Source: Abditibacteriota bacterium (GTDB lineage: Bacteria > Armatimonadota > UBA5829). From it: a stretch of 64,000 bases of DNA. Positions 4,406 through 60,264 of this stretch are shown here, in pieces. The DNA is taken from the NCBI GenBank assembly GCA_017445025.1, contig JAFSVJ010000028.1, forward strand, positions 30,707-94,706, given 5' to 3'. Position 1 is the stretch's first letter. Every line of letters begins with the position of its first letter. Both the position numbers and the translations under genes were made by a program. Below the pieces are notes generated by a model. It was given only the letters and a program-made list of their open reading frames with translations, did no database searches and was not told the origin of the DNA.

Positions 4406-4435
4406 AGCGTCACCTCCGATTTAAATATTTTGGTT

Positions 4436-6228: not shown

Positions 6229-6245
6229 TTGTTTCTCCTTTTTAT

Positions 6246-9521: not shown

Positions 9522-9618
9522 TTTTTACCTCAAAACAATTAGTATACCCTAAAACTCGGAGAGTTTCTTGGAGGGGATTTTACCACTCTTTGTAAAATCA
9601 CAAAGAGGGGTAATATCA

Positions 9619-11460: not shown

Positions 11461-11481
11461 ATTTGCCTCCTTAAAATTTAA

Positions 11482-14868: not shown

Positions 14869-15069
14869 CGGTCAAAATTTGGTGCAAAACCACCTCTATT
14901 ATACATCAAAAAAAAAAAAAGCAAATCACAAGTCATTTTTGGTGGGATGAAAGAAAAAAGTGCTTTTTTAAGCCAAAAACAAACAATTTCTCTCAAACTC
15001 GTCCTCTGTCACCGGAAAACCTACTTATAAGATTAAATTAATTTGGAATGCATTTGCATCTGTGGATAT

Positions 15070-15320: not shown

Positions 15321-15446
15321 AAGGTTTTCTTTTCTCCCTTCCATATATATATAGTCATATTTCCACCCAAAATTGCCATTTTTTCAAAAAAAATTTTTAA
15401 ATATTTTTTGACAAAAAAAAAGATACCATGTTTTCACATAGTATCT
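15321..15446. repeat. direct repeat R2 (copy of 4436..4545)
   Basis: Same core sequence and hairpin as R1. Confidence 0.8.
15411..15445 (-). terminator. putative rho-independent terminator downstream of dxs (inside repeat R2)
   Basis: Minus strand: 9-bp stem gatactatg/catggtatc, 6-nt loop, then a 9-U run. Confidence 0.45.
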
Positions 15447-15473
15447 TATTCTTACGAGTTTAAGGGGTAAGGA

Positions 15474-17372
15474 TTAAAACATATCTATTATGGTTTGGGC
15501 TATGGTTTGAGGATCTAAGCCCAGTTTCTCAAAAAGCTTGTCCACGGAACCGTGTTCTATATATTCGTCAGGCAAGGTGAAAGATTTTTTTAGGAGATTG
15601 CCCTTTCCTATTTGGGTCAAATAGGCTCCCACCAAGGATCCGAAACCACCTTCTGCCACATTTTCTTCAAAAGTAAATATATAAAAGTTTTCCTTAGCCA
15701 CTTTTGATATATATTTCTTATCGAGAGGCTTTACAAAACGGGCATCCCAAACCTCTATATTAAAATCTTTTTTTAACAGCTCTTTTACTTTCAAAGCGGT
15801 ATAGCACATTCTTCCGCATGCCATAAAGACCATTGGAGGGGTTTTTGTTTTAAACAAATGTTTTAATCCCAAAGGCTCGGCAGGGCTTATTACCACACCT
15901 TTACCATATTCTAATTTTTCTTTTCCAATAGTATAAAGTGTAGGGCTTGCACCTCTCGGATACCTAATAGCAACAGGAGAGTTTATATCCAGAGATAACT
16001 TTATTGCTCCTTCCAAATCATTGACATCCTTAGGGGAAATAATGGTAATATTAGGAATATTGCTCAAATATGAAATGTCAAACATACCATGGTGAGTTTG
16101 TCCGTCCTCCCCTACCAGTCCGCTTCTGTCTATCATCAAAACCACAGGGAGATTTTGCATACAAATATCATGGTTAATTTGATCGTAGGCTCTCTGCAAA
16201 AAAGTGGAATAAATACATACAAAGGGCTTCAAGCCACCTTTAGCAAGTCCCGCACCAAAGCTGACAGCATGTTCTTCGCTCATCCCTACATCAAAAAATC
16301 TGTCCTTAAAAGTCTTTGCAAATTCACTTAGTCCGCACCCGTCGGGCATAGCCGCTGTGACAGCAACTATTTTTTTATTATCCTCTGCCAAATCACATAT
16401 AGTTTCGCTGAAAACATTGGTCCAAGAAATGTTGGTTTCCTTTTTCTCAGCTACTCCGTCAACTATATTAAACTTGCCTATACCGTGAAATTTAGCCGGG
16501 TTTTTCTCAGCAAACTCATATCCGTGTCCCTTTTGAGTAATAATATGAACCACGGTAGAAGATCTGTTTTGCTTTGCCCCTATTAAAGCTCTTTCCACAT
16601 CTTCGATTTTATGGCCGTCATAAGGTCCTATATAGGTAAGCCCCCATTCTTGAAAAAACACACCCTTAACTGACTGAAAAAGACGAATAAAACCGTGATA
16701 GAGACCTATACATGTATCTGCCACAACTCTTCCCCCGGGAATAAACTTTATACTTCTTTTCACAGTCTTTCTCGTTCTGTTTAGTCGATATTTCAAACGA
16801 AGGGTTGAGAAATTTTTAGCAAGAGCACCCACACTTTTAGAGATGGACATCTCATTGTCATTTAACACAATAATAACATTTGAGCCTAAGGAAGATAGAT
16901 TATTAAGGGCTTCAAGAGCCATACCGTTTCCTATGGATGCGTCCCCTATAACCACCACAATGTGACCGTTTTTGCCTTCAAGGTCCCTTGCTTTTGCCAA
17001 TCCCATAGCAAGAGATATTGAATTTCCGGAATGTCCGGTTATGAAATGGTCATGTTCACTTTCATTTGTATTTGTAAAACCGGAAAGGCCTCCAAAGGTT
17101 CTTAAAGTCTGAAACTCCTCTCCTCTGCCGGTTATAATCTTATGAGCATAAGATTGGTGACTTACATCCCATATTATTTTATCTTCCGGAGAATTAAAAA
17201 CAGAGTGTAATGCAACTGACAATTCCACCACGCCCAAATTAGAGGAAAGGTGACCGCCGTTTTTTGACACTACCTCTATTATCTTTTCTCTAAGATAATC
17301 CGCATATTTATATTTTTCCTTCAAAGTCAACTGTTTCAAATCTGAAGGACTTTTAATTTCATTATAATCCAT
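15474..17372 (-). CDS. dxs: 1-deoxy-D-xylulose-5-phosphate synthase
   Basis: GHLSSNLGVVELSVALHSVF, a GDASIGNGMALEALN TPP-binding region, and the transketolase-like C-terminal domains. 632 aa. Confidence 0.9.
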   Translation of the reverse strand: MDYNEIKSPSDLKQLTLKEKYKYADYLREKIIEVVSKNGGHLSSNLGVVELSVALHSVFNSPEDKIIWDVSHQSYAHKIITGRGEEFQTLRTFGGLSGFTNTNESEHDHFITGHSGNSISLAMGLAKARDLEGKNGHIVVVIGDASIGNGMALEALNNLSSLGSNVIIVLNDNEMSISKSVGALAKNFSTLRLKYRLNRTRKTVKRSIKFIPGGRVVADTCIGLYHGFIRLFQSVKGVFFQEWGLTYIGPYDGHKIEDVERALIGAKQNRSSTVVHIITQKGHGYEFAEKNPAKFHGIGKFNIVDGVAEKKETNISWTNVFSETICDLAEDNKKIVAVTAAMPDGCGLSEFAKTFKDRFFDVGMSEEHAVSFGAGLAKGGLKPFVCIYSTFLQRAYDQINHDICMQNLPVVLMIDRSGLVGEDGQTHHGMFDISYLSNIPNITIISPKDVNDLEGAIKLSLDINSPVAIRYPRGASPTLYTIGKEKLEYGKGVVISPAEPLGLKHLFKTKTPPMVFMACGRMCYTALKVKELLKKDFNIEVWDARFVKPLDKKYISKVAKENFYIFTFEENVAEGGFGSLVGAYLTQIGKGNLLKKSFTLPDEYIEHGSVDKLFEKLGLDPQTIAQTIIDMF

Positions 17373-21718: not shown

Positions 21719-21822
21719 ATTTAAACCTTCCGGATATTTAAAATCTTGCTATAATATTATACCACTTTTTGGGATTTTTTTCAAATCTTAAACTTTTATT
21801 ACTTTTAAGGGCAGGCACTTAT

Positions 21823-26954: not shown

Positions 26955-28079
26955 TTATGAATTTAATAACTTAAGAATAGTTTCATCATAATTATCAGTA
27001 TAATTTTTTAATACTCTCAAAAATTCTTTAAAATCAGATATTTTTTCCATTTTGCTTATGGTTATCCAATCTAAATCTTTATATTTAGCTTGAAATAAAG
27101 TTTTACTGTTTTTAGGATTTTCAAAATCATATTTAATAATGCCTATACCAAAGGCATTATTTAATCTTTCCATTTCTTCTTGTAATTCTGGTTTATCATC
27201 AATTTCACTTGCAACCAAATATCCTTCATTTGCCCAACTTGAATTTGATACTGCTTGAAAATATGATTTCTTTAAATCCCCAAGAGTTAATGATTTCTTA
27301 AGTTCAAAAGAATAAATAGTGCAAGGAGCATTAGACATTTTTTTTACAAGATCTTGAGTTATATTCTCATATTTATGTGGTTTTACACCAACTATATCCG
27401 GATTCATCCATTCAAAATCCCCTTTTTTACCATTACTTTCTTGAATTCTTTTTCCATAAACATTAAATTTAACTTTTAAATACTCTATAAATGGCATGTA
27501 CATATCTTTTTCATCAAATTTCTTTTTTTCTATAATATGAAATTCTGCTTGTTTATTATCATTATTAAAATATCTTAATTTAAATTTAGCTTCATCAACT
27601 TTGACAAATTCAGAATTATCACCATTATTCTTAATATCTTCATATATAGGAGTTGATAAAGTATCTATAGGATTTTTACTTTTGGTATTTAGTTTTTTGT
27701 CATAACCTTTGTTAACACCGTAAGCCCAAATATCATTTATGTGTGTTGGCTCATTATTTAATTCGGTTAAAACTTCTATGGCAAAATCTTTAAATGTATA
27801 TTTGTTATTATTATAAAGAGGGTTTAGAGAGAATTTCCCTTTATCTATTTGAATAAATTCGGAGTTTTTTCCTTTCTTTTTTATATCTAAGTATAATTGG
27901 GCAGAAATAGTTGCTTCCGGAGTTTTACCGATATTTTTAAGTTTCTTGTGAAAATCCCGAAATACTCCTTGCTCCCAAATTTCCTTAGCAGTTAATATTT
28001 GATTTGAAGCTTTTAAAGTTTCTCTTGCAAAATCCTTGTAAGTATATGCCATTTTATAATCTCCTTTAAAATGTATCAA
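26955..28079 (-). CDS. tandem HARE-HTH domains + C-terminal PD-(D/E)xK-like nuclease domain (restriction-endonuclease-like), island 2
   Basis: Two repeats containing GKTPEATISAQLY / NPIDTLSTPIYEDI that resemble the HARE-HTH of RNAP delta and restriction enzymes. The C-terminal region has NPDIVGV ... YSFELKKS (PD ... ExK). The start overlaps the upstream gene stop by 14 nt. Confidence 0.55.
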   Translation of the reverse strand: MIHFKGDYKMAYTYKDFARETLKASNQILTAKEIWEQGVFRDFHKKLKNIGKTPEATISAQLYLDIKKKGKNSEFIQIDKGKFSLNPLYNNNKYTFKDFAIEVLTELNNEPTHINDIWAYGVNKGYDKKLNTKSKNPIDTLSTPIYEDIKNNGDNSEFVKVDEAKFKLRYFNNDNKQAEFHIIEKKKFDEKDMYMPFIEYLKVKFNVYGKRIQESNGKKGDFEWMNPDIVGVKPHKYENITQDLVKKMSNAPCTIYSFELKKSLTLGDLKKSYFQAVSNSSWANEGYLVASEIDDKPELQEEMERLNNAFGIGIIKYDFENPKNSKTLFQAKYKDLDWITISKMEKISDFKEFLRVLKNYTDNYDETILKLLNS

Positions 28080-31000
28080 AATTTATAATATTACTTTCAT
28101 CCTTTGGCTGGAATTTTTCTCTTATAAATTGTTTGATATTATCCGGTAAATTATATTTTTCCATTAGTTTTTCATTAATTTTATCGATTGATGAATCCCA
28201 CCAAATTTCTGAAAAATCTTGTCTCGGTATAGCTTGCCAACAAGAGGTGCTATGCTGATTCTTTTTATTTACATATAATAAAGCTCTAAAAAACTGAGTC
28301 ATAAAGTATTTAGCACATTTTTTGACAAGATCTATATCGTCAGAAGGGCACACTTCTAAGTAGGTTTCTAAACATGCTTCGTTGGGATAGGCAATAATAA
28401 TATCTGCAAATTGCCCTCCTAAATGTGTATGTTCTGACATATTCCCCCATGCATATGGAACATAGAGCTTATATTTATTAATATTTTCAATCTTAGGTTT
28501 CTCAGGGAACTTATAAGAGTCAGAAATATACTTTATTTGATTTTTAGGACCATATATTTTTATATTATATCCATTTTGCTTTTTATCTAGTAAATTATCT
28601 TTATAATTAGGTATGGATGAGAACTTTGTTCCTATTCCATATTGATTTCTGTTTGAAATAATATCTACACATTTATTACTTTTCTTTATGCTTTCAAAAC
28701 CATCAAAGTTAGAAATAATATTTGATAAATCTATTATTTCTTGAGGTTTTGAAACTTTGGATTCATATAATAATTTCTTTATATCGGGATTCTTACCTTC
28801 TGTAAATATCTTTTGTTTACCATCTAATTTATTATCAGATCCATATATCCAAAGTATTATATTTGTCCATTCTGCTCCTGCTACTCCAGTAAAGACATTA
28901 TGTCTATTATCTATACACTTAATTTGTTTATCTTCTTTTATTTCCGGTTTATTCATAAATTGAAGATTATTTTTATTTTTTGGTTCTTGCCAACCAACGG
29001 GGAATATTAAAGAGACATATTCCCCTAATATAATAGACTGCAAATAGAAAAATGGATATATTTGCATATGATGACCCATTTGATATGGTGGATTGCCTAC
29101 TATTGCTTCAAATTTCATACTTTTTTTTCCTTTAACTAAACTTGTATTCAAATCTATTTCATTAAATATCTTTTTTTGACATAGTAATTCTTTTACTTTG
29201 TCATAATCTATAGTTTCTTTTTTACCTTTATTCTTTTTTACTTTTAATAAATCGTAAGTATTAAATTTCTCTGCTATATTCTCTATTGGTAACCCCAAGC
29301 ATTCATAGACTTTTCTTGTAAATTCATAAGTTAATGAAGAGGTTGGTATTGAGTATATCATTTTTTTATATTTTTCCTTAGGTATGTTTAACTCTTCATA
29401 TTTTTCAACAATAGCAATAGCAAATTCACCTATTTTGGAAGCTATATCTAATATAGGATTTTTAAAATCATTTATAGGTAAATCTTTTATCATTTCTTTA
29501 CATATACTTTGGGGAGTGACAATTTCTGAAATGCCAAGCCTACTGAATTTAGTTAAAGCAACTTTTGCTCGTTCAATTGGGCTTAGACTGTCATCGTGAG
29601 ATAAGTTATTCATATTTCTTATTTTTTGATCTAAATCACGAATAATTATTGAATTTAATTTGGAATTTAGTTGTTCTAAATTTTCTTTCTTTAAATTAAT
29701 ATTTTTAGCGATTCTTTTATTATCACAAGTATCATCTATTTTAGATATTATATCACTTAAAGTTTTAACTTTACTTTTAGTTAAAAAAGCAAAGATTAAA
29801 ATTCTTGAATAATAAGCTCTGACTTTATCTTCAAAAGCGTCTTTTTCTTTTTTTGGAGGTTCCGCAGATGTGTCGCTTGTATCTCTTTTTTCTTTTGTTG
29901 AAGGGTCTATGTCTTTGCCTTCCCCTTCTCCTTCGTGTGCATTAAAGCTCAATCCTTCTTTAGAATTTAACCCTTTTTCTTTATTGATAAAATCCAAATC
30001 TTTTAATGAGGCATCTATACTAATTTCGTCAACTTCTTCTCTAATCCCCCTTTCCTTTGAGTATTTGCTAACATAATTCATAACATTATCCGGAGTAACT
30101 TTCTCGATTTTATCATTATTGATAACAAACATAGGGGAGAGATCAAAATCTTTTTCAATTCTTTTTTTAATATCACAATCTTTCTCATCTTTAACAACAT
30201 TATATACAAAAGCTTTTTGCTCTTGTAAAGTAAACATTCTATAAGGATTAAAATCTACTAACAGAGTTTGAGGCTTTTTATTATCTTTAATTATATTATT
30301 GTTTTTATCTATAAATATCTTAACATTTTGATTTTGTAATCTAAAAATAGCTTGGTCGTATTCTTGTGGTGAAGATGTATCCTTTAGAAAAATCATTGTG
30401 TCCCATTGTGGCACTGTTGAACCGGTTAACATTCTGTTAACCGTTAAGGTTAAAGTTTTTGAATCTTCTTTTGTTTTTATTTTATTTTTGATAGCATTTG
30501 TATTCTTATATTTATTATCTAAACCGGCAATATTTATAATTTCATAGTCTTTTAGCTTATTAAACTTGCATTTATTATTATTTAATAAATCTTCGAGAGC
30601 GTCACAAGAAGCCTTATATGGTAAAACACAGACTATGTGTTGACACATTTTCCCTTCTTTAATTGGATCATAATTTAAAAAACTAAAAATATTATCGTCA
30701 TCTTTAGAGCCATCTATAGCTTGAAAGAGTTCTAATACTTCTTTCTCAAATTTAAACTTTTTATATTCTCCTTTTTTATCTATACTTTCAGGTCTTAATA
30801 AATCGTTTAATGTTCCTAATTCACCTTTACTTTTTAATTCTTCCATTTTCTTTAAGGAAGATTCATTTGGATTAAAACCAAACCTAATCATTTCCGGGAA
30901 ACCGAAATAGGGATTATCCCATTCTTCTATATTATCTTTATTTAAATTTTTTTTATCCCATTCGTTTTTTGCTTCAATGATATCAGAATATTGATATTTT

Positions 31001-32058
31001 GCTATAATTTTTTCTTCTTCTTCAAATTCACTACTCATTAATATTCTGTAAGGAGTTCCGGATAAATGTAGTTTTATGCTACACTTTAATTTTTTATTTA
31101 TTATTTCTTTAGCTTCATTTGGATCAAAATAGTCTTCATCTTTTCCGGACGGTATTTTTTCACTATATTTTTCTGCACGTGCTCCAAAGTGAGTCTCATC
31201 AATTATCAACAGGTCAATGTTTTTTTCTAATAATTCTTTGTGCTTATCCTTTACATTTTCGCCTTGTAAATCTTGTAAAGTCAGAAAAATCACTACACGA
31301 TTTTTATCTTTCTTATTTAATACTTTTTTTATTTCACCATCTGACTTTTCTAAATCATGTGAAGTTAAAAATTCGTAATCGCTAAAATTTTCAGCACTTT
31401 GGACGGTTTTTCTCCATTCATCTTTAACATCTGCTTTTGCGGAAACAATAACAACTATTTTTGCACAAATAGCTTTTGCACAGCATAAAGCAGTAAAAGA
31501 TTTTCCAAATCGCATTACAGCATACATAAGTAGATTCGTTTTGTAATTAGATACTGCATCTATAAATTTTAGAACAGTCTCTTCTTGATTTGGTCTTAAA
31601 CTCCACGTTCCGGTAGATGCATATTTTGTTTTGATTTTTCCTTTATCTTTTAGGCTATATATATCATACGAATCAGAATTATCTTTTATATGTTGTATTG
31701 CTTTATCTATATCTTCTTCATTTACATTTTCAAAAAATTCATTAGAATAATAAGCTTCATGATTTATTTCTTCTAATTTTTTTTCGGTTAAACGTGTCTT
31801 ATCATTATTTTCTAAAAATTGATGAACAGAATAATCTCTAAAATATTTATCGTTATCTTTTAATACAGCACTGTGTTCAGATAATTTCTCAAGATTCGGG
31901 AATATATCTCTCCATTGCTTAAGTCTAACATTTACTCCTTGGGTTGTGTCACCGACTTTAGTATAATTGGGAATAGTCTCAGTTGTAAATGAATATATAT
32001 ATGGTTCTTTATATCCTGTTATAACTTCATCAATTTTAGTAGTATCAATTTTAGACAT
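28066..32058 (-). CDS. multidomain protein: GIY-YIG-like N-terminus + DExH SF2 helicase (type III res-like) + gamma-class N6-adenine MTase-like domain + C-terminal TRD-like region (Type ISP-like), 1330 aa
   Basis: N-terminus YIYSF...YTKVGDT...R, GIY-YIG-like. Helicase motifs I (RFGKSFTA), II (IIDETHFG) and III (LSGTP). MTase motif X (IVTPQSICKEMI), degenerate motif I (ILDIASKIGEF) and motif IV (IVGNPPYQ). Confidence 0.7.
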   Translation of the reverse strand: MSKIDTTKIDEVITGYKEPYIYSFTTETIPNYTKVGDTTQGVNVRLKQWRDIFPNLEKLSEHSAVLKDNDKYFRDYSVHQFLENNDKTRLTEKKLEEINHEAYYSNEFFENVNEEDIDKAIQHIKDNSDSYDIYSLKDKGKIKTKYASTGTWSLRPNQEETVLKFIDAVSNYKTNLLMYAVMRFGKSFTALCCAKAICAKIVVIVSAKADVKDEWRKTVQSAENFSDYEFLTSHDLEKSDGEIKKVLNKKDKNRVVIFLTLQDLQGENVKDKHKELLEKNIDLLIIDETHFGARAEKYSEKIPSGKDEDYFDPNEAKEIINKKLKCSIKLHLSGTPYRILMSSEFEEEEKIIAKYQYSDIIEAKNEWDKKNLNKDNIEEWDNPYFGFPEMIRFGFNPNESSLKKMEELKSKGELGTLNDLLRPESIDKKGEYKKFKFEKEVLELFQAIDGSKDDDNIFSFLNYDPIKEGKMCQHIVCVLPYKASCDALEDLLNNNKCKFNKLKDYEIINIAGLDNKYKNTNAIKNKIKTKEDSKTLTLTVNRMLTGSTVPQWDTMIFLKDTSSPQEYDQAIFRLQNQNVKIFIDKNNNIIKDNKKPQTLLVDFNPYRMFTLQEQKAFVYNVVKDEKDCDIKKRIEKDFDLSPMFVINNDKIEKVTPDNVMNYVSKYSKERGIREEVDEISIDASLKDLDFINKEKGLNSKEGLSFNAHEGEGEGKDIDPSTKEKRDTSDTSAEPPKKEKDAFEDKVRAYYSRILIFAFLTKSKVKTLSDIISKIDDTCDNKRIAKNINLKKENLEQLNSKLNSIIIRDLDQKIRNMNNLSHDDSLSPIERAKVALTKFSRLGISEIVTPQSICKEMIKDLPINDFKNPILDIASKIGEFAIAIVEKYEELNIPKEKYKKMIYSIPTSSLTYEFTRKVYECLGLPIENIAEKFNTYDLLKVKKNKGKKETIDYDKVKELLCQKKIFNEIDLNTSLVKGKKSMKFEAIVGNPPYQMGHHMQIYPFFYLQSIILGEYVSLIFPVGWQEPKNKNNLQFMNKPEIKEDKQIKCIDNRHNVFTGVAGAEWTNIILWIYGSDNKLDGKQKIFTEGKNPDIKKLLYESKVSKPQEIIDLSNIISNFDGFESIKKSNKCVDIISNRNQYGIGTKFSSIPNYKDNLLDKKQNGYNIKIYGPKNQIKYISDSYKFPEKPKIENINKYKLYVPYAWGNMSEHTHLGGQFADIIIAYPNEACLETYLEVCPSDDIDLVKKCAKYFMTQFFRALLYVNKKNQHSTSCWQAIPRQDFSEIWWDSSIDKINEKLMEKYNLPDNIKQFIREKFQPKDESNIINFDTF

Positions 32059-33124
32059 TATATTTTTCTCCTAATAATGATTTGAATGTAATAACATTTG
32101 GATTCCCTTTTTTTCCATTAGCGAACCAATCTTTGATATAACAATATTTAGGCTCTGTATCAAAGGGAGTTGTTAATTCTTTGTTTTTCTTTAAAAATTG
32201 CTTTTCTAAAAATTTATTATTATCTATTCTTTCTTTTTCAAACGGTGGCATAAAGGTTAAACCATCCATTTGCCATATATTCCATGCTATAATATTAGCA
32301 ATGGTTTTTATATATTGTAAATTCGGTATTTTGTTAAATTTATCAATATAATAATCTATAAAAGTAAATAATATATTTTCTCTTGCTAATAATAAATTAT
32401 CACCTTGATATTCATAACCATAGGTAGACCAAAAAGCTTTTATAGCCCAATTTACCCAATCTTTTTCTTCATTAGTGTTTTCACTTACAACTCTTAACTT
32501 CCTATCCAATAAACCAATTCTTTCTTTTATAGGTATTTGCTCACCGGTTACTGTGTCATATCTACTAACCAAATAAGGAGCTTCTCCACAGGTGATTTCA
32601 AGTCTTTTAGCCCTAACATAATCTTCCCAAGTCTTTTTTGTTTTTGAAAAGTTTATTTTATTTTCTGTAGCTTTCCAACCTTTATCACCAACAGGCACAT
32701 TAAACATATTTTCAACACCAAACCAATCATCATCAATAAGTTTATTTTGTTTATTACAAACCCAAGAAGGAGTAAATACTTCAGCCTTATCTTTTGTTCG
32801 TGCTTGTTGGTTGGATTTTTCTTTATCTATACGAGGTTGAATAATTAAACCGTTAATTGTTATACACTTGATAGTGATAGGACTTTTGGGGTCATAAGCA
32901 TCAGCATTTTCTAATAAATCTTTATATTGAATATAATTATCTGTAGCCCATATAATGTTTTTATTTTCAAAATTATATCTAACTTTAGACATATCAATTA
33001 ACAAAAGTTTCATAACCGACTCACCGAAAAAGTTAAGAATAAATTCTTCAGATATATCTCGTTTGGAACATTCACTTTTTAATATGTCTAATGTTAAGTT
33101 TTGTTTATATTTAATCTTTCCCAT
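32051..33124 (-). CDS. hypothetical protein (357 aa) with FTP ... CGEAPYL ... MPPF signature reminiscent of MTase motifs X / I / IV; first gene of island-2 operon
   Basis: AEVFTPSWV, LEITCGEAPYLV and LTFMPPF. Its stop overlaps the 1330-aa gene start by 8 nt. Confidence 0.45.
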   Translation of the reverse strand: MGKIKYKQNLTLDILKSECSKRDISEEFILNFFGESVMKLLLIDMSKVRYNFENKNIIWATDNYIQYKDLLENADAYDPKSPITIKCITINGLIIQPRIDKEKSNQQARTKDKAEVFTPSWVCNKQNKLIDDDWFGVENMFNVPVGDKGWKATENKINFSKTKKTWEDYVRAKRLEITCGEAPYLVSRYDTVTGEQIPIKERIGLLDRKLRVVSENTNEEKDWVNWAIKAFWSTYGYEYQGDNLLLARENILFTFIDYYIDKFNKIPNLQYIKTIANIIAWNIWQMDGLTFMPPFEKERIDNNKFLEKQFLKKNKELTTPFDTEPKYCYIKDWFANGKKGNPNVITFKSLLGEKYNV

Positions 33125-33289: not shown

Positions 33290-33650
33290 CGGTGGTGTTG
33301 TTGGCTTAGATTGTTAGGCTTCTATCTCGCAAGCGAGTGAATACATAAATTTGCAATTCTATGCAAATTTATTCCTGACCACCCACCACAATCCAAATCC
33401 CTAAAAGTTTCGCACGGCCCCCCCACGGGAAAATCAAAGATTTTCCTCGTAGCCCCCCTAAAGGGGGTTCATTGATAGAAAAGCGAAACTTTTTGGGATT
33501 AGGGCAAGCAGTTGTCGTTTTTACAAAAAAGCGATGCTTTTTTGCCGCAATTCAACCTTGGATGAAAGGAATTTGCGGTTGCAAATTCAGTTCAAGGAGG
33601 GTGAGTGCCTACAATTCACCCCCAAACCTATGGTTTAGGGGAGAGAGAGA
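33290..33650. repeat. GC-rich mosaic interspersed repeat copy, related to 48230..48470 (inverted), 60170..60262, 34560..34680, 38380..38660 and 49268..49393
   Basis: tctatctcgcaagcgagtgaatacataaatttgcaattctatgcaaatttattcctgaccacccacc recurs as its reverse complement at 48393..48460. GC palindromes such as cccccaaacctatggtttagggg are present. Confidence 0.6.
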
Positions 33651-34479
33651 TTTTATCTATTTTCTTACAAATGTCTTCTATAATATAGTCCGGGGTGGAG
33701 GCACCGGCGGTTATGCCCACTGTGTCACAGTTTTCAAACATTTCTCCACTTATTTCTTCATCCGTTTCTATATGATAAGTGTGTGGATTCATTTCCTTGC
33801 AAATCTGAAACAGTCTGTTGGTATTGGCACTGTTCTTTCCACCAACCACCAGCATTACATCCACATTAGGTGCCAGATCGTGAGCTGCCGCTTGTCTTTT
33901 ATGAGTGGCATAACAAATTGTATTTGCCACAGTTATTTCATCAGCTATTTGTGCTATTTTACCCACCACTTCACCAAAATACTTTGGGCTGTTGGTGGTT
34001 TGGCTCACTATACCTAACTTTTTCTTTTTAAAATCATATTTATCAACGTCTTCAATGCTTGATATTACAATACAATCGTTATCCGCAGAAGACATTATAC
34101 CCTTAACTTCACTGTGGCCCGCATCACCAACTATTACTATTTTCAGCCCGGCTTTCTTATATTCAACCACTTTCTCATGGACTGCCTCCACAAAGGGGCA
34201 TGTGGCGTCAATAGCCTCAATACCTAAGTTCTCACACTTTTTGAAAAACTCCTTAGGCACACCATGGCTGGGCATTATTATTTTATCATAAAACTTATCT
34301 ATTTCGCTTGTGACCTCAACACCCTTTTCTTTCAAATCTTCCACAACTTGAGGATTATGAATAAGGGGGCCTAAGGTGGCTATTTTCTTGTCCTTATCTT
34401 TGGCATTAGATAGAACTATATCCATAGCTCGCTTTACACCAAAGCAGAAACCGGAATGTTCACTGATTTTGATTTTCAT
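33628..34479 (-). CDS. ispH: 4-hydroxy-3-methylbut-2-enyl diphosphate reductase
   Basis: GFCFGVKRAMDIV N-terminal motif, three conserved Cys regions, and LytB-like length (283 aa). Confidence 0.9.
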   Translation of the reverse strand: MKIKISEHSGFCFGVKRAMDIVLSNAKDKDKKIATLGPLIHNPQVVEDLKEKGVEVTSEIDKFYDKIIMPSHGVPKEFFKKCENLGIEAIDATCPFVEAVHEKVVEYKKAGLKIVIVGDAGHSEVKGIMSSADNDCIVISSIEDVDKYDFKKKKLGIVSQTTNSPKYFGEVVGKIAQIADEITVANTICYATHKRQAAAHDLAPNVDVMLVVGGKNSANTNRLFQICKEMNPHTYHIETDEEISGEMFENCDTVGITAGASTPDYIIEDICKKIDKISLSPKP

Positions 34480-34559
34480 ATTTTATACCAAATACAATTA
34501 TAGCATTAAAGAAGTTTTTGATTTTGCTTCGCAAAATGTGATTTTCTTTGAAAATCACG

Positions 34560-34680
34560 AATTCCCCCCGTCAGTTTCATTCCCAAAAAGTCTTCGCTAA
34601 CGCTTCAACTTTTCGGGAGCCCTTGAAACAATTACGGACTGCCACCCCCCATTTTTCCAAAGAAAAATAGAGGGGCACAT
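34560..34680. repeat. GC-rich interspersed repeat copy (module caacttttcgggaRcccttg)
   Basis: Shares cttcgct ... caacttttcgggagcccttg with 38520..38550 and, inverted, 49296..49320. Confidence 0.45.
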
Positions 34681-34702
34681 TTAGCAGAACCGAATATCTA
34701 CA

Positions 34703-38295: not shown

Positions 38296-38379
38296 AGTTA
38301 ACTCCTTAATTTTATTATATAATTTATAATTTTATATCTATTTAAAAAAATTCCCAAATCCATACGGGATTTATATTTC

Positions 38380-38660
38380 TTTTATCTTGAGTATAAAAAT
38401 TCCAAATTCCACAAAAATCTCTAATTTTTTATTACGAAAATCTCTTCGCTCCTTAACCTACGATTTTTTTATAGACGCATAAAACCCTAAGCCCAAATCC
38501 CAAAAAGTTTTGCAAGCTCAACTTTTCGGGAACCCTTGGGCAGCACCCAATTTCTTCATAAATACACTACGGTGAAATTTTACTTCGTAAAATTCCATTT
38601 ATTTTGAAATTGTGGCTTATGGACGGCTAAAGCCTTTTTATTTGCTTAATAAAAAAATCT
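38380..38660. repeat. interspersed repeat copy (modules ttccaaattccacaaaaatctctaatttttt and aaaagttttgcaagctcaacttttcgggaacccttg)
   Basis: Related to 43720..43790, 44060..44130, 48040..48090 (inverted), 48308..48345 (inverted) and 49296..49340 (inverted). Confidence 0.5.
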
Positions 38661-38730
38661 TGTTATAGTCGCTTGATATTTTCTATAAAAAATTGATCTT
38701 TTCAGTTCTTTGGGATTTTTATACTCGCTT

Positions 38731-39084: not shown

Positions 39085-39169
39085 TTTTATGCTCCTAAAC
39101 TTATAAATTATATATTTTTATTATTCATTTTATATAGATTTTTCTACGCAAAATCATTTTTCTGCTTAT

Positions 39170-39420
39170 AGTCGCAAAATCGCTGTTTTGCGAATTCCCC
39201 TTCCCCCACTCCGTTTTGACCGTTTGCTACGCAAACGCCAAAACGACACCCCCCGCCCCGTGGGTCGGGGGACCGACTTTGGGGCTACCCCCCTCCGGCT
39301 CCCCCCTATATTCAAACAAGCTTGAGGCTTGTCTACAGAGCTTTACCCCCATAGGGGGGGAGAGAGTGGTGCGTTTGCATTAGCGTTTCCCGTGGCTAAG
39401 GAGTCTATCTACTTAAGATA
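39170..39420. repeat. GC-rich intergenic block with multiple short CCCCC/GGGGG palindromes (repeat-family-like)
   Basis: ccccgccccgtgggtcggggg, cccccatagggggggagagag and similar. GC content is far above the flanking DNA. Confidence 0.4.
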
Positions 39421-39502
39421 ACTAATAATCTAAGAGACCGCCAACATAAATAGTTCGGAACAATACAACTGTTCTGCTTTCTGATTTCATATTTGATATG
39501 AT

Positions 39503-42671: not shown

Positions 42672-43682
42672 TTATTTACAAGAGCCTCTCACAACCAATT
42701 TAGGCTCCATTATTATCTTTTTTAAAGGATAATCTTTATCTCGTAAAGATTTTATAAGCAAATCAGCTGCCATTTCCCCTATATGCATATAGTTCTTACC
42801 ATAGGTGGTCACTATTGTAGTTAAATTGATTCTTCGCAGTTTTGCCATTTCACTGTCGTCTATGCCTAAAACACTGACTTTTTCCGGGATAGATATTCCT
42901 TTTTCGTCCAGCGCTTCCATTACTCCCACTGCCACGTTATCACTTATACAAAAAACTGCGGAAAAATCAAGATTTTGCCATAAAGCTTGTTGGATAGCAT
43001 TGTATCCATCCTTTATATAAATACCGCCATTAATAAAATATTTCTTTCCAAGCTCAATACCCTTAGTTTTCAAATATTCTTTTGAAGTATCATTAAACAA
43101 CTTAAAAGATTTAAAATGTTCTTCCTTCTTACTGCCATTTATAAACAATATTTTTTCATGACCTAAGGACAGAAGATAATCAAGCCCTGTCTTCACTATA
43201 CCTGTCATATCCTCTATAATATAATGGCTGTTAACATTAGGGGGTTCAGAGTCCACACATACAGTCGGAAGAGATTTTGATATTCTGCTGAGTAAATCAT
43301 TTTCTCGTTCACAAGCACAAACTATAAGTCCGCAAGCCTGAAATTCAATAAGTTGTGTCAAAGCTTCCTTTTCTTTTTCCAAATCTCTGTAGGTAGAAAA
43401 AATCATTACCTTATAACCCACATCGGATAAATACCTTTCCGCGTTGGTCACTATTTCTTGCATGAAAGGAGTATCAAACTCTGATACGACTATTCCTACC
43501 AAGTTACTGCTTCCCTTTTTTAATATCTGGGCGATTTTATTGGGAAAATAACCATGCTTTGAAGCTATTTCCAAAACTTTCTTTCTTGTATTTTCGGATA
43601 TACGAGATTTTTCTTTAAAACACAAACTTACGGTTGTTGCCGAAACACCGGCCAATTTCGCTATTTCATTTACAGTAATCAT
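42672..43682 (-). CDS. LacI-family transcriptional regulator
   Basis: N-terminal HTH MITVNEIAKLAGVSATTVSLCF plus a periplasmic-binding-protein-like sugar-binding domain. Confidence 0.85.
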   Translation of the reverse strand: MITVNEIAKLAGVSATTVSLCFKEKSRISENTRKKVLEIASKHGYFPNKIAQILKKGSSNLVGIVVSEFDTPFMQEIVTNAERYLSDVGYKVMIFSTYRDLEKEKEALTQLIEFQACGLIVCACERENDLLSRISKSLPTVCVDSEPPNVNSHYIIEDMTGIVKTGLDYLLSLGHEKILFINGSKKEEHFKSFKLFNDTSKEYLKTKGIELGKKYFINGGIYIKDGYNAIQQALWQNLDFSAVFCISDNVAVGVMEALDEKGISIPEKVSVLGIDDSEMAKLRRINLTTIVTTYGKNYMHIGEMAADLLIKSLRDKDYPLKKIIMEPKLVVRGSCK

Positions 43683-43923
43683 AAAATTTATTTTTTGTCT
43701 CTAAAAAATGTATTTATTATTAAATTATAAAATTCTAAATTCCCTAAAAATCTCTAATTTTTTGCTTAACGAAATATCTCTTGTCTTACCAACCCTGACG
43801 CTCATTCGTCTTGAAACAAAATAGCTTCGGATTGCGTCCTTGCTCTTTTGCTCCAATACTCATTCGCTACGGGCGGTGACGACAATTCGCTATTTCTTGC
43901 AAAAAATTAATCTTTTTGGTAAT

Positions 43924-44019
43924 TTATAACTTTATAATACGAGATTTTTCTTTAAAACACAAACTTACGGTTGTTGCCGAAACACCTGCCAATTTCGCTA
44001 TTTCATTTACAGTAATCAT
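43924..44019 (-). pseudogene. 31-aa HTH-only fragment copy of the LacI-family regulator N-terminus
   Basis: Manual translation gives MITVNEIAKLAGVSATTVSLCFKEKSRIIKL then a stop. It is identical to the regulator N-terminus up to residue 27, with one synonymous change. Confidence 0.55.
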
Positions 44020-44257
44020 AAAATTTATTTTTTGTCTCTAAAAAATGTATTTATTATTAAATTATAAAATTCTAAATTCCCTAAAAATCTCTAATTTTTT
44101 GCTTTACGAAATAACTCTTGTCTTATCTCCTTGACATTCGCTCGTATAAGAACAAATCTCTTTCGGCTACGCCTCACATCTTTGCCCTTCTACTCACTCA
44201 TTACAGTCGAAGACGACAATTCGCTATTTCTTGCAAAAAATTGATCTTTTTGGTAAT

Positions 44258-44353
44258 TTATAACTTTATAATACGAGATATTTCTTTAAAACACAAACTT
44301 ACGGTTGTTGCCGAAACACCTGCCAATTTCGCTATTTCATTTACGGTTATCAT
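44258..44353 (-). pseudogene. second 31-aa HTH-only fragment copy of the LacI-family regulator N-terminus
   Basis: Manual translation gives MITVNEIAKLAGVSATTVSLCFKEISRIIKL then a stop. Confidence 0.55.
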
Positions 44354-44380
44354 AGTTTTTACTCTTTTAAAAGTTTTTTA

Positions 44381-45847
44381 TTATATTTCTGTCACTTTTA
44401 TATTCATAATTTCTGCCAATTTGATCAGTTGACTCTTGCAATCACCATGACAAACTATTACATGGTGGGTGACTCCCACCTTATGAAGTTTTGCCACAAA
44501 TTCTTTAACAGGTCTCTTAACTTCTACAAGAGCATGGATTTCATTACAAGGCAAAGTGGGATAATCTAAGGATTTACCACTGCTTACAAGCATTTGCCAA
44601 CCTTCACTTGTATTCAGCAAATGTCCCATGGTCACCGGTCCCGGTTTAAATATAAACTCCATATTACAACCGGTTCCCTCAAAACCCCACTCTTCCGGAG
44701 CTGTGGTAAGAGATATATCTTTCTCACTCTTAGCGTTCTTTGTGCCGGCTACCCCGTGACCTACCAAAAATATGGCATTATGAGATAAGTCATATTGCCC
44801 CCACTCGGCTTGAAGAGGCACATTTCCGGTTAATTTATACATCATCTGCATCATACAAAGACCTGCAAGGTCACCTTCACTTGCCACAATATTATCCGGC
44901 TTATCCATAATCATGGAAGCACCGATTCTTGCGGGAGCACCTGTTTCTTTTTCAATAAAATGTTGACCTAAAAAACAAAGACTGTCAAGCCTATACTTAT
45001 CAATAAGATCTTTCATAGCCAAGCCAAGCTTAACACTTTTTACAATATCATCCGATTTAACACCGCGGACATTAAAACGAGCTGCAAATTTTCTTGCTTC
45101 TTCTTCCGCATCACTATCCTTAACCTCTTTCCATAATCTCAAAAGATGTGATAATTCAACATAGATAATGTTAGGACCCAATGTGCCCTTGATTTTGGTT
45201 TTGTCATTTTCAAGGTCATACATTCCTCTAAATACGTGACCCACAACACCTACATTTAAATTTCTCAAATCCTTGACAATTTTAAGAAGTGTCACATATT
45301 CATCTATTTCTTCAAAACATACACCTTCTTCAAGAGAACCCACAATTACATCATAATTCTCTTTCCCCATCTTTTTAAAAGAGCCGGAAAGCTGTGTGGT
45401 TCCTATAAGTGATGAGTTTTCCATCATAACTTCATAGTCGTCTTGCGGGGTAATATCGTTATATGCTTGAACGTCAAACAATAATATGGGAACATCTCTG
45501 TTATAATCTATAGCTTGCATAGAAATATAATCAGGCACATAAGTTCCTTCACATACTATTATAAGGTCTACCTTTTCATCTCTGAAAATTCTTCCCACTT
45601 CATCAGCTTTATCAAGAGTATCTACTATTTTAGGAAATATTACCGTATTATTCTCTTTAAGTTTTAAGGCTATTTTGTTTAAAAGATTTTCCACATTTTC
45701 TTTAAACCGGGGAGAGAACATTCTCCAATATTCAAAATATCCGCATGCCAAAAATCCTATTTTAAATTCACAAGGTTTTGTTTTTTCAGACAATAAATCG
45801 CCAAACACATTACCTATTCCACTTTCAAAAGATAAAATTTCGTCCAT
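44381..45847 (-). CDS. sugar isomerase of the L-arabinose/L-fucose isomerase superfamily (putative)
   Basis: About 490 aa. The N-terminal KIGFLACGYFEYW...VDLIIVCEGTYVPD region resembles AraA/FucI-like isomerases. The family assignment is tentative. Confidence 0.45.
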   Translation of the reverse strand: MDEILSFESGIGNVFGDLLSEKTKPCEFKIGFLACGYFEYWRMFSPRFKENVENLLNKIALKLKENNTVIFPKIVDTLDKADEVGRIFRDEKVDLIIVCEGTYVPDYISMQAIDYNRDVPILLFDVQAYNDITPQDDYEVMMENSSLIGTTQLSGSFKKMGKENYDVIVGSLEEGVCFEEIDEYVTLLKIVKDLRNLNVGVVGHVFRGMYDLENDKTKIKGTLGPNIIYVELSHLLRLWKEVKDSDAEEEARKFAARFNVRGVKSDDIVKSVKLGLAMKDLIDKYRLDSLCFLGQHFIEKETGAPARIGASMIMDKPDNIVASEGDLAGLCMMQMMYKLTGNVPLQAEWGQYDLSHNAIFLVGHGVAGTKNAKSEKDISLTTAPEEWGFEGTGCNMEFIFKPGPVTMGHLLNTSEGWQMLVSSGKSLDYPTLPCNEIHALVEVKRPVKEFVAKLHKVGVTHHVIVCHGDCKSQLIKLAEIMNIKVTEI

Positions 45848-47855: not shown

Positions 47856-47889
47856 ACTATACACTTATATTTTATCATATTTACAAATA
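47856..47889. repeat. 34-bp direct repeat ctatacacttatattttatcatatttacaaatat (second copy 48151..48184) bracketing a ~260-bp repeat-element insertion
   Basis: Two identical copies read directly from the sequence. Confidence 0.7.
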
Positions 47890-47894
47890 TAAAA

Positions 47895-48085
47895 TTACAA
47901 AGGACCGAAAAGATCATTTTTTTGCAAGAAATAACGCATTGACGTCTTCGACTGTAATGAGTGAGTATTGAAGCGATTTTTAAGGCACACGCCATTAAAA
48001 ATTGTTTCAAGACGAAGGAATGTCAAGGAGATAAGTCAAAAGTTATTTCGTTAAGCGAAAAAATAGAGATTTTCGAGGAATTTGG
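47895..48085. repeat. inverted copy of the ~190-bp element found at 43720..43915 and 44060..44255
   Basis: The reverse complement matches ttc(c)aaattcc..aaaaatctcta...cttatctccttgacattc...tactcactcattacagtcgaagacg...tatttcttgcaaaaaa.tgatctttt. The sequence is mosaic between the two direct copies. Confidence 0.7.
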
Positions 48086-48229
48086 GATTTTATATTTAAA
48101 TTAATGCATCTCTAACTAAAAAAAATATTGATATTGAAAAATCATTATTTCTATACACTTATATTTTATCATATTTACAAATATTTTTCAATCCAAATCC
48201 ATGCCACTTTCCACCCGTCAATACTTTTT

Positions 48230-48470
48230 TCGGAAATGGGTTTTAGGGGTGAAAAAAAAGCCTCAGTGGTTAGACTCACCCTCCTTGAACTGAAAATTGC
48301 ATCCGCAATTTTCCTTTCATCCAAGGGTTTCCAAAAAGTTGAGCTTGCGAAACTTTTAGGGATTTGGAAGGAGGGGGGACCGGCGAAGACGGTGGGTGGT
48401 CAGGAATAAATTTGCATAGAATTGCAAATTTATGTATTCACTCGCTTGCGAGATAGAAGTTATATATCTC
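48230..48470. repeat. GC-rich mosaic repeat copy (inverted relative to 33290..33480)
   Basis: ggtgggtggtcaggaataaatttgcatagaattgcaaatttatgtattcactcgcttgcgagataga is the reverse complement of 33300..33366. It also carries caagggtttccaaaaagttgagcttgcgaaactttt (inverted module B). Confidence 0.6.
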
Positions 48471-48695
48471 TTTTTCACTTCCGCCGTAGGAATGACTGTA
48501 TACAACTATGGTTTCAAAATTCTTGGCATGACTTTTATCAAAATAACACACTTCTCTGTCACCCTTATAGGAAAATTCTATTTTTTCGAGATGAAAAGGA
48601 CTTGTCATATCTTTATTTATACCAAGAATTTTAAAGTCTTCACAAAATACCCGAAGAGATAAAATACACAATAATAAAACAAATAATATTTTCAT
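48438..48695 (-). CDS. small secreted hypothetical protein (85 aa)
   Basis: Signal-peptide-like N-terminus. Its 5' region overlaps the repeat element. Weak call. Confidence 0.3.
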   Translation of the reverse strand: MKILFVLLLCILSLRVFCEDFKILGINKDMTSPFHLEKIEFSYKGDREVCYFDKSHAKNFETIVVYSHSYGGSEKEIYNFYLASE

Positions 48696-49864
48696 TTTTT
48701 AAGCCAATTTATTGTATTTTCAAATAAAATTTTATTAATATCACTGTGGCTGACACCATAAAATTTCATCATTTCTTTAAAAGTGACAAGAATATAATCA
48801 AAACCTAAGCCACCATAATTGTGAAGCATTTGCTTTAAACATATATCATTACTTAATAGGATTTGTGAAGCATATCCCTTATCACAGAGTTTCTTAATAC
48901 AAACACATCTCTCTCTGTCACTCGCAAAAGGACCATCAGCATATCCGCCGGCTTCGGGAATAAAGAACTCTTTGGCAATATTATCAAACTGAACATAAAC
49001 ACCCATATCCAACAGTTTTTCCATATATTCTATGTTTAATTCCACATCTGTATGGCAAATAACCACTTTTTCAAAATCAAGATTAAAAGGTTTTAATATA
49101 TTGATAACATCAATGCCTGTTGTTCCCCAAGGGTGAAGGTGAACTTGCATTGGAGCGTGAAGTTCCTTACAAGCAATTGCGGCACCACACAGAGATTTCT
49201 TTTCATTCTCTGATATAACCTTACTTGTGCCTATCTCCCCTATTATTCCCGGAAATATTTTACAATCCTGCCCCCCTAAACCGTAGGTTTGGGGGGTGGC
49301 ATCTCCCCCAAGGGTTCCCGAAAAGTCGTTTAGACTTTTTGGGATTTGGGGGCGAAGAGATGACGGGGGGATGGACATCTGCCCCCCTAAACCCACAGAA
49401 ATGCCATATCTAAATTCATTTAATATCTCTTCCGCTATATCATTTTCCCTCTTCTCGGAAAAATCGGAAGGAAATGTATCACCTGTATAATATCCGGATC
49501 CGCAAATAATATTCACTCCCGTTTTTTCTGCCATTCTCTTTAATTTTAAAGGATCTCTGTTTATACCTATATTAGTATTATCTATTATAGTTCCTCCGCC
49601 GTGAGCTTTGAATATTTTAAGCTCATCTGTCATTATATCCTCATTATCAAGAATAAAATTGTCCTTCATTAAATAAGGATTAAGCTTAATATAACCCACA
49701 TTTTTAAGAGATATTTCATCATAACAAATCTTCGCCATTTCGGGATTTTTAGGCTCGGAAAACTCATTTGTCAAATCAATAAATATATGCTCATGGGGGA
49801 GAATATATCCCAAATCTTCAATTTTCTTTTTTCCCAATACAGTATTTATCATATTTCTGTCCAA
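48692..49864 (-). CDS. phosphotriesterase-family (PTE/Php, TIM-barrel metal hydrolase) protein carrying an in-frame 111-bp repeat-element insertion
   Basis: N-terminal LPHEHIFIDL metal-binding motif typical of the PTE family. At 390 aa it is longer than typical family members. A GC-rich segment encoding ...IPKSLNDFSGTLGGDATPQTYGLGGQ... interrupts the fold. Confidence 0.65.
   Translation of the reverse strand: MDRNMINTVLGKKKIEDLGYILPHEHIFIDLTNEFSEPKNPEMAKICYDEISLKNVGYIKLNPYLMKDNFILDNEDIMTDELKIFKAHGGGTIIDNTNIGINRDPLKLKRMAEKTGVNIICGSGYYTGDTFPSDFSEKRENDIAEEILNEFRYGISVGLGGQMSIPPSSLRPQIPKSLNDFSGTLGGDATPQTYGLGGQDCKIFPGIIGEIGTSKVISENEKKSLCGAAIACKELHAPMQVHLHPWGTTGIDVINILKPFNLDFEKVVICHTDVELNIEYMEKLLDMGVYVQFDNIAKEFFIPEAGGYADGPFASDRERCVCIKKLCDKGYASQILLSNDICLKQMLHNYGGLGFDYILVTFKEMMKFYGVSHSDINKILFENTINWLKK
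49268..49393. mobile_element. MITE-like GC-rich repeat element inserted in-frame in the PTE-family gene, bounded by 15-bp direct repeats ctgcccccctaaacc
   Basis: Direct repeats at 49268..49282 and 49379..49393, exactly 111 bp apart. The internal sequence is the reverse complement of the module at 38498..38545 (cccaaatcccaaaaagt...cttttcgggaacccttg). Confidence 0.55.
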
Positions 49865-52872: not shown

Positions 52873-53637
52873 TTATCCACACAAGTCACGGTTAATCCAG
52901 TGTGTATTCCACCACCAAGCAACAGAGTTATACATTATATCACTGTTGTATTTAGAATATTTGGCGTGACCGTCAGCAAATGTAATGTTTACACCATCCA
53001 TGTGGGGGTAAACCTTTGCGGCTTTTGCACCGGAACCAACATAGTCAGCAGCATAAGCTTGCATAACAGAAGCCTGTGTAGAACCTAAACCATACCAATA
53101 TCTGTCAATAAGCATAACAAATTCGGAAGAGGTTGGGATTTGAGTTTCCGTTAGAGGAGGTCGGCAGTGCCAAGTTAGGTATCCTTCCATTGAAATACAT
53201 AAGTGTCCTGAAATTTCTGCATTATAACCGTATGAGGGCTTATTTGTAGTTATATTTTTATTTAATGCAGGGTTGGAAGGACAACGAAACATTTGAACAT
53301 TCTTGACATAAGGGAATATAGAATCCATCCATGTGAAACGTGCCTCTGCTCCTGTTGCATCACATTGGGCAAAGAAAATCTCACCCGGGTAACCGGCAGT
53401 GGCTGTGGTGATAAGATTTCCTGCACCACAATCATACTGACAATCAGCAGGGTATGTTTCGTCGTAATCGTCTTTGTATAACATAAAAGCAGTTCCCATT
53501 TGCTTCATGTTAGAGAGACAACTTGTTTGTCTTGCTTTTTCTCTTGCCTGTGCAAACACAGGGAAAAGAATGGCTGCGAGTATTGCTATAATGGCTATAA
53601 CAACAAGCAACTCAATTAAGGTAAAACCTTTCTTCAT
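52873..53637 (-). CDS. DUF1559 / H-X9-DG protein with prepilin-type N-terminal cleavage-methylation domain (pseudopilin-like)
   Basis: [27 protein letters not shown]-terminus. C-terminal H-x9-DG motif ([12 protein letters not shown]). Confidence 0.75.
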
Positions 53638-53796
53638 TATTTTTCTCCTGTTTATATTTTAGTTTATCGTTAAACCTACATATATATTATACCATAAAAA
53701 AAAATAAAAAGTCAAGGTTTAAACCTTATTTTTTTTAAAAAATCAAAAAAAACATCCAAAAAATAATTAATCTAAGGGAAATGTTTTAGATATTTT

Positions 53797-60091: not shown

Positions 60092-60169
60092 AACAATTTC
60101 CTCTTTTAATCTTTTAATGTTAATATTTATAATAATTTAAATAATTTTCACCATCTTTGATAAATATCA

Positions 60170-60262: not shown

Positions 60263-60264
60263 AG

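Follow-up and report, generated by a model that had tools for sequence, protein, structure and literature searches.

What are the GC-rich, hairpin-dense stretches that punctuate an otherwise AT-rich bacterial genome, and how did they come to occupy so many unrelated positions? The question is raised by a 64,000-nt stretch of DNA (hereinafter the window), in which the GC content is 33.8% (34% is given for the host genome) and in which nearly all genes between 28 and 56 kb lie on the minus strand. At 33290–33650 and in six other places we observe stretches of 38–59% GC situated in intergenic DNA, with one of them falling within a gene (Table 1). Every such cluster strings together short hairpins whose stems, 7–12 bp long, are nearly perfect and whose loops measure 3–6 nt; hairpins with stems of 8–12 bp are present in every cluster, and copies occur at more than seven sites in the window. 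The clusters sum to about 2 kb, i.e., 3% of the window, and C or G runs of six or more are nearly restricted to them. The LytB protein encoded beside the first cluster is identical to GenBank MBQ7256616.1, from a metagenome-assembled genome (MAG) labelled Abditibacteriota bacterium, while for other genes the closest named relatives are Armatimonadota, such as Candidatus Hippobium faecium. We posit, with a probability of roughly three in four, that the clusters belong to a family of interspersed repeats not described before, whose members are small, non-autonomous and hairpin-forming, in an uncultured Abditibacteriota host. The titles and abstracts searched contained no literature on such repeats in Abditibacteriota; the kind of repeat is known (selfish bacterial repeats) and this family is a fresh example of it.

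Table 1. Hairpin clusters, their component modules and the genes that they touch in the window.
Feature	Position	Strand	Description
Cluster A	33290–33650		Hairpin chain from the 3′ end of lytB towards the promoter of the gene that follows; RNA fold z = −7.44 against shuffles. Contains M1 33300–33387; split M2 33392–33509 (three small hairpins in loop); hairpin CAAAAAAGC-GAT-GCTTTTTTG 33524–33544; M3 33556–33606; M4 (CCCCCAAACCTATGGTTTAGGGG) 33619–33641
lytB/ispH gene	33628–34479	−	Last seven codons (ISLSPKP) and TAG stop from M4
Cluster B	34480–34702		223-nt insertion between metallophosphoesterase gene and lytB. Contains X-like element with nested M2 variant 34573–34627; hairpins GTGATTTTC-TTT-GAAAATCAC and TTTTGC-TTC-GCAAAA; on the minus strand, extended −10-like TGCTATAAT ahead of the lytB start codon
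Cluster C	38296–38730		Between two ASRT-family genes; M2 38491–38541; AT-rich U module fragment 38396–38430
Cluster D	39189–39406		59% GC chain of C/G-run hairpins within the 418-nt spacer 39085–39502
Cluster E	48185–48470		M3 48274–48326, M2 48321–48367, M1 48391–48459; all inverted relative to cluster A
85-aa ORF	48438–48695	−	Last seven codons and stop inside M1
Phosphotriesterase-family (PF02126) gene	48692–49864	−	Hosts in-frame element; ORF intact
Cluster F	49262–49399	−	Composite inserted in frame into the phosphotriesterase-family gene, adding a net 129 nt (43 codons); DNA fold z = −3.38. Solo arm GGTTTAGGGGGGCAG, then element X (ATGTCCATCCCCCCGTCAT...CCCCCCAAACCTACGGTTTAGGGGGGCAG) with M2 hairpin in its centre
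Cluster G	60147–60269		3′ end of rhamnosidase-family gene (60265–62523, minus strand); M1 variant, modules reshuffled
Lone match to core of M2 left arm	21764–21776	−	Promoter-like region, without right arm

The modules of which the clusters are built (M1, M2, M3, M4, X and U; names coined in this analysis) recur with high fidelity at distant positions. M1 at 33319–33387 is 100% identical over 69 nt to the reverse complement of 48391–48459, and the segment 33304–33326 matches the reverse complement of 60243–60265 at 23 of 23 positions. M3 at 33556–33606 corresponds to the reverse complement of 48274–48326 (53 nt, 91% identity), and the M4 palindrome at 33619–33641 is the reverse complement of 49273–49295. 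The 13-mer core of M2, AATCCCWAAAAGT, occurs six times in the window as against a mean of 0.03 in 100 shuffles, whereas the lone match to its left arm (Table 1) may be a remnant or a chance match. The original prediction of GC-rich interspersed repeats in an AT-rich genome is thus borne out far beyond chance, as are the C5/G5 palindromes that it pointed to (the M4 pair) and the second module that it placed at 34.6 and 38.5 kb and, inverted, at 48.3 and 49.3 kb, which is M2 and has a further, split copy at 33392–33509. Its long segment, drawn at 33300–33366, is a true repeat with the shifted limits of the 69-nt M1 pair, its positions being offset by up to 20 nt in places. The copy with an internal substitution at 60.2 kb is likewise real, but it is a partial one, comprising the 23-nt match and a central hairpin that reads GTAAAATTTGCA..TGCAAATTTTAC in place of ATAAATTTGCA..TGCAAATTTAT and stays palindromic; another segment of this cluster, 60147–60175, also recurs in a metagenome contig (L027). 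The sequence at 39.2 kb (cluster D) had been listed as a copy, but shares only the hairpin-chain style: no copy of it was detected in the window or the fetched loci and, consequently, it is by style that we assign it to the family. The M3 pair is a shared module that had escaped that prediction.

The basic units are imperfect palindromes of about 25–60 nt with GC-rich stems. M2, a hairpin with arms CCAAATCCCWAAAAGT and ACTTTTYGGGAACCCTTGG flanking its loop and copies at 33.4, 34.6, 38.5, 48.3 and 49.3 kb, is an imperfect palindrome of about 51 nt with the form xxCCAA-AT-CCCWAAAAGT-(variable loop)-ACTTTTYGGG-AACCC-TTGGxx, in which AT stands opposite AACCC as an asymmetric bulge. The copy at 38493–38539 and the inverted one at 48321–48367 are 91% identical over 47 nt, and further copies are seen at 34578–34625 (divergent) and 49307–49350 (inverted). 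In the split M2 other hairpins are nested in the loop: its arms, at 33399–33497, surround three of them, and the same composite is found at 92–95% identity in two metagenome contigs (L021 and L022). Element X displays conserved ends, AATGTCCATCCCCCCGTCAT ... TTAGGGGGACA, around a variable centre: in L026 there is nothing in it, in L024 and L027 it contains small hairpins, and in two window copies it is occupied by a whole M2. Both units have inverted termini (TGTCC(AT)CCCCC / GGGGG-GGACA in X and xxCCAA / TTGGxx in M2) and both are palindromic throughout. The order and orientation of M1–M4, X and the small hairpins differ from locus to locus. The family accordingly consists of palindromes within palindromes, chained as mosaics in either orientation.

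The hairpin structure of M2 is preserved by compensatory changes. When 22 distinct copies, taken from the window as well as from other contigs, are compared, 92.9% of the cells are paired, and 28 cells show two-sided changes as compared to 9.5 in shuffles, with none of 500 shuffles reaching 28; moreover, the pairing collapses when partner columns are slid. The two outermost pairs come in 3–5 pair types, and the asymmetric bulge is invariant. Outside the palindrome the flanks of 26 copies are diverse, with no motif common to them and thus no conserved, GTAG-like cleavage tetranucleotide.

Beyond the window, loci were retrieved from metagenomes by means of a 21-mer of M2, and the sample is biased to M2 as a result. 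The 21-mer matched 20 metagenome contigs, about 18 of which are of low GC and carry the same modules in new combinations: alongside M2 they contain M1, M3, X, the split-M2 composite and the AT-rich module, in an order that is ever different. Their neighbors are unrelated housekeeping genes, coding for a chromate transporter, a GDSL lipase, sigma factors, a ParA-like ATPase, LptF/G, UbiA, GntR regulators and others, and in one contig (L024) a copy lies between divergent genes, i.e., in a promoter region. Many of the contigs end within repeats, as a multi-copy family would break assemblies. Among 185,579 species-representative genomes, which do not include this lineage, the 21-mer gave two matches, both in ordinary sequence without the hairpin, with about two expected by chance. 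Two scans of viral contigs returned either nothing or chance matches at 50% GC, and as far as these scans go the family does not appear to be phage-borne. The family is dispersed over many unrelated loci. Hence, the further copies are not confined to a single duplicated region, and they show the orientation-independent, modular distribution, in both orientations and varied orders, that had been described for the window; the association with a carbohydrate locus and the edge of a genomic island, also suggested from the window, is incidental, given that at other loci it is housekeeping genes that adjoin the copies.

The window has a gene landscape and several repeats of its own, which we record here as separate observations. 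Two low-GC (0.26–0.32) blocks of restriction/defence genes occupy 1–15000 and 27000–33100; they include Eco57I-type methylase-endonuclease fusions (11482–14868 and 28066–32058), GmrSD (9619–11460), a PLD-SNF2 helicase (6246–9521) and a HARE-HTH protein (26955–28079). The 15–27 kb region between them is made up of higher-GC housekeeping genes and is nearly without hairpin clusters. A unit of about 335 nt is present in tandem triplicate at 43600–44460, each copy comprising the first ~28 codons of a LacI-family regulator together with AT-rich upstream sequence; the true start of the regulator is at 43682 on the minus strand, and two extra truncated HTH-coding stubs result. The upstream part, the U module, is found inverted at 47886–48101 ahead of an aldo/keto reductase gene and adjoins M2 hairpins in six metagenome contigs (L005, L010, L014, L019, L023 and L027). 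An intergenic direct repeat of about 100 nt (4440–4542 and 15330–15445, 85–93% identity, 10.9 kb apart) is probably a common promoter or leader; a sub-threshold match to the Rfam family sbrA is seen at 15414–15484 (29.5 bits vs. the 45 required, E = 0.05). Tandem paralogous genes for 430-aa proteins with no Pfam match lie at 53797–55089 and 55128–56420 (73–84% nucleotide identity). Finally, an inverted 194-nt repeat (53449–53642 vs. 63373–63566) corresponds to the N-terminal prepilin-like (N_methyl/DUF1559) region of two genes and recurs in L006, L015 and L016.

The clearest filled and empty forms of a single site come from the phosphotriesterase-family gene that houses cluster F. In a sister strain (L025), 9 nt are found where the window has 138 nt (49262–49399), a net gain of 129 nt or 43 codons, and the flanks of the site are 93–98% identical at the nucleotide level. 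The protein encoded on that contig (P0001), which is the closest homologue, shows 97% amino acid identity outside the insert and is 43 residues shorter at the insert site. The insert is absent from all 62 other homologues compared (alignments A1 and A2), and the structure PDB 3k2g, which is without the insert, gives a gapless alignment across a 41-residue stretch of the window protein; a separate ENA protein (P0002), on the other hand, carries the identical in-frame insert. Every piece of the 129 nt recurs elsewhere as a module of the family, and the insert folds as three hairpins. The AlphaFold model places insert residues 159–197 at pLDDT < 50 between a helix (140–153) and a strand (207–212), the rest being above 90 save for one lower-confidence stretch around residues 300–310; in this prediction, the insert is a low-confidence extra loop in an otherwise confident fold. 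The reading frame is maintained across the insert and, as the insert is open in three of its six frames, this tolerance requires no special explanation. A HMMER search with the 43-aa insert peptide against 1.84 billion representative proteins gave one low-complexity false match only, a weak negative given that alleles with the insert would go unseen in a set of representatives at 50% identity. At this site the insert is not flanked by a direct repeat of the target.

Other junctions tell of similar gains and losses between relatives. In L026 and L027, whose genes at this junction are about 83–90% identical to those of the window at the nucleotide level, the metallophosphoesterase and lytB genes overlap (TAATG), whereas in the window the 223-nt cluster B separates them and ends in the extended −10-like TGCTATAAT and a new ATG; at most, ATG is repeated at this junction, and it would be functionally needed anyway. 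Separately, an extended −10-like motif, TGGTATAAT (minus-strand reading GTGGTATAATAT), precedes several minus-strand genes (18905, 21754 and 24614) and is seen, too, where hairpin clusters have their AT-rich end; it is likely to be the house promoter of the organism. The spacer before the first ASRT gene measures 12 nt in L027 as compared to 418 nt, with cluster D, in the window, and the spacer between the two ASRT genes is 139 nt in L027 and has modules different from those of cluster C. One L027 spacer exceeds its window counterpart in size and contains modules missing from it; thus, as each holds modules of its own, both lineages gain copies at different sites.

Coding ends are affected as well. 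LytB has 283 aa in the window and 277 aa in relatives, in which it ends in ...LRNF or ...LKKY, while strains that are at least 97% identical display the tails ...ISLSPKP, ...ISPTKP and ...ISLLLNHRFGGEL (P0121, P0362 and P0363). The longest of these, ISLLLNHRFGGEL, is consistent with a one-base slip in a (CT)n tract before M4, such that the hairpin is read in another frame. The 85-aa ORF next to cluster E diverges from its L025 counterpart, which runs on for at least 101 aa, exactly at the M1 boundary, and its missing 3′ part is not present downstream of cluster E, where it was searched for. Repeat gain is lineage-specific, with relatives having empty sites. One more locus is of note: positions 1–210 of L026 hold an X-like element with three tandem 33-nt units, in frame and immediately upstream of an FrhB_FdhB_N domain. 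The gene is cut by the contig end, which falls within the element, and the corresponding place in homologues is taken by a 2x[4Fe-4S] ferredoxin domain. It is a possible second in-frame insertion or, alternatively, a domain replacement.

How does the family relate to known repeat systems? As in REP and BIME elements, the units are short imperfect palindromes that are mostly extragenic, and as in BIMEs each cluster mixes several motif types, in both orientations, into a mosaic; M2 and X resemble REPINs in having two inverted arms around a variable spacer, and, as in all three, complementarity is kept via two-sided changes and clusters turn over between close relatives. In contrast to these elements, the present family shows no sequence similarity to them and occurs in another phylum, REPs being of Proteobacteria; unlike REP/BIME, its units are GC-rich in an AT-rich genome, are nested in each other's loops, and have at least one copy inside a coding sequence, and neither a RAYT gene nor a conserved flanking tetranucleotide was found in the DNA examined. 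Other precedents lie further afield. In the BOX elements of Streptococcus pneumoniae, for which no dedicated transposase is known, the boxes follow one fixed order, A-B(n)-C. They share with our family a modular build from a few short box types in variable number and order, stable hairpins and intergenic placement, but here the modules are more numerous and their order, orientation and nesting are free. The GC clusters of yeast mitochondria are GC-rich mobile palindromes in a very AT-rich genome that are polymorphic between strains and have optional in-frame copies in var1. The likeness in composition, strain polymorphism and in-frame copy is an analogy only, as these belong to a eukaryotic organelle and have unrelated sequences.

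The in-frame copy recalls the Rickettsia palindromic elements (RPE), said to have been described by Ogata et al. in 2000. RPEs are mentioned in a review of MITEs (PMC10969869). In both cases, a palindromic element of about 100–150 nt (here 129 nt, 43 codons) sits in frame within a gene with the frame kept; the insertion-free orthologue is found in a close relative, and the insert falls, in the predicted model, in a loop of the fold. Differences are the unrelated organism, the intergenic location of most copies here, the composite make-up from modules also found alone, and the count of one clear in-frame case plus C-terminal tail replacements. Compared by description, then, the family is an analogue of the RPEs and not a member of them, the host being of the Abditibacteriota and not of the Rickettsiales. 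More generally, it is not a demonstrable member of the REP/BIME/REPIN, RPE or yeast GC cluster families. With classical MITEs it has terminal inverted repeats in common (X and M2), though here the whole unit is palindromic. Of the MITE-like mobility originally suggested, the mobility itself is upheld by the empty sites in relatives, but a MITE in the strict sense is not, as no transposase and no target-site duplication were found.

Specifically, no Y1_Tnp or other transposase is seen among the ORFs of the 64-kb window, or among the ORFs of 100–350 aa beside repeats in L005–L027; about 150 kb of the lineage was covered. No clean target-site duplication is seen at the phosphotriesterase site, the lytB junction or the X flanks. 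The dispersal, the identical distant copies, the nesting, the kept structure and the lineage-specific gain are what one would expect of palindromic repeats that are non-autonomous and copied in trans. For the copying, by analogy and inference only, the nearest working model is offered by REP/REPIN-RAYT, where hairpins on single-stranded DNA are recognized by a tyrosine transposase with a single gene copy (PMC3116915; PMC3337134, which reviews REP biology). On this precedent, we infer that the repeats would be copied in trans by an enzyme encoded elsewhere, presumably a single-strand, hairpin-recognizing HUH/tyrosine transposase, for which the asymmetric M2 bulge (AT opposite AACCC) might be the recognition feature. 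New copies would land mostly in intergenic DNA, often next to a unit already there or within its loop, thereby building nested mosaic chains in either orientation; nesting would follow because hairpin loops offer single-stranded targets. The occasional copy that lands within a coding sequence, or at its end, would have its GC-rich, stop-poor sequence translated as an extra loop or a C-terminal tail, and any role at the level of the host, for example as hairpins at mRNA 3′ ends, would be secondary. Recombination or gene conversion between existing clusters could make part of the mosaicism without transposition, and recombination between clusters probably does add to it. A bolder version appears unlikely to us: that this is a distinct mode of DNA growth, in which palindromes insert preferentially in the loops of other palindromes by the action of a hairpin-specific Abditibacteriota enzyme distinct from known transposases, with the host regularly recruiting them as protein loops, tails and spacers.

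Could the clusters instead be cis elements selected by the host, such as terminators or exonuclease blocks in 3′ UTRs or sites for nucleoid or repair proteins, which spread because they are useful? REP/BIME elements have acquired such host roles, and most clusters here follow directly on a stop codon and precede the AT-rich promoter from which the next gene would be read, with stems maintained by compensatory change and an invariant M2 bulge sequence. However, copies are present in both orientations relative to transcription, and a terminator scan detected 8 sites as against 10.0 ± 2.9 in shuffles, i.e., no enrichment. The only terminator-like matches touching clusters are two weak 5-bp stems in the cluster C spacer (38536–38550 and 38369–38352); in clusters A, B, D, E and F none coincide with the GC-rich hairpins, which lack T-runs. 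Further, orthologous spacers in close relatives are without clusters or have different modules, one copy is in a divergent promoter region (L024), another is inside a coding sequence, and one cluster separates two genes that overlap in relatives. This poor conservation at orthologous sites disfavors host use as the primary explanation, and we consider it improbable in that role.

A good deal less probable still is it that the repeats are genes for structured RNAs of small size, or parts of a single large RNA, the alternative that the original prediction had offered alongside mobile elements. While a strong fold is predicted and there is covariation in the M2 stems, Rfam gave no match at the gathering thresholds, and the three matches at E ≤ 1 are all outside the clusters. 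Moreover, the modules are perfect DNA palindromes that would fold equally on either strand and occur in both orientations with respect to transcription, their order and content differ at every locus, and some copies overlap coding sequence. As that prediction had held, leaders specific to particular genes do not account for the clusters either, since nesting, free orientation and housekeeping synteny do not fit leader RNAs. CRISPR arrays are ruled out by the irregular spacing; tRNA or tmRNA genes are ruled out too, no tRNAs having been found.

It might also be supposed that chimeric joins of GC-rich reads into an AT-rich MAG have produced the clusters by faulty assembly or binning, considering that the window comes from a metagenome-assembled genome and that many related contigs break at repeats. 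Yet clusters A and B together with both flanking genes are reproduced at 99.96–100% identity in two independent ENA assemblies, whose agreement argues that the repeats are no assembly artefact; the reading frame is also intact across the 129-nt insert, and P0002 has the identical insert in frame. We accordingly regard an artefact as highly implausible. Integron attC-like sites marking gene cassettes, which are likewise imperfect palindromes of variable sequence with conserved bulges located 3′ of genes, can practically be dismissed, for here several units are nested or chained per spacer in both orientations, the genes on either side (lytB, metallophosphoesterase, ASRT) are not cassettes but housekeeping genes whose synteny is conserved, and the window has no integrase.

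Taken as a family of interspersed, hairpin-forming repeats, the clusters document repeat biology of the REP/BIME-like and RPE-like kinds in a phylum known almost only from metagenomes (Abditibacteriota/Armatimonadota). They would amount to a new category of system only if the copying mechanism proves new. The repeats account for the fragmented assemblies of the lineage, and the pairs of filled and empty sites date insertions to the divergence between strains. Their effects on genes are tangible: a 43-residue loop in an enzyme with the amidohydrolase fold, LytB tails that vary from strain to strain, a small ORF cut short, and two genes that used to overlap and are now 223 nt apart with a new promoter-like sequence between them. 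Finally, the repeats could serve as strain markers in this lineage.
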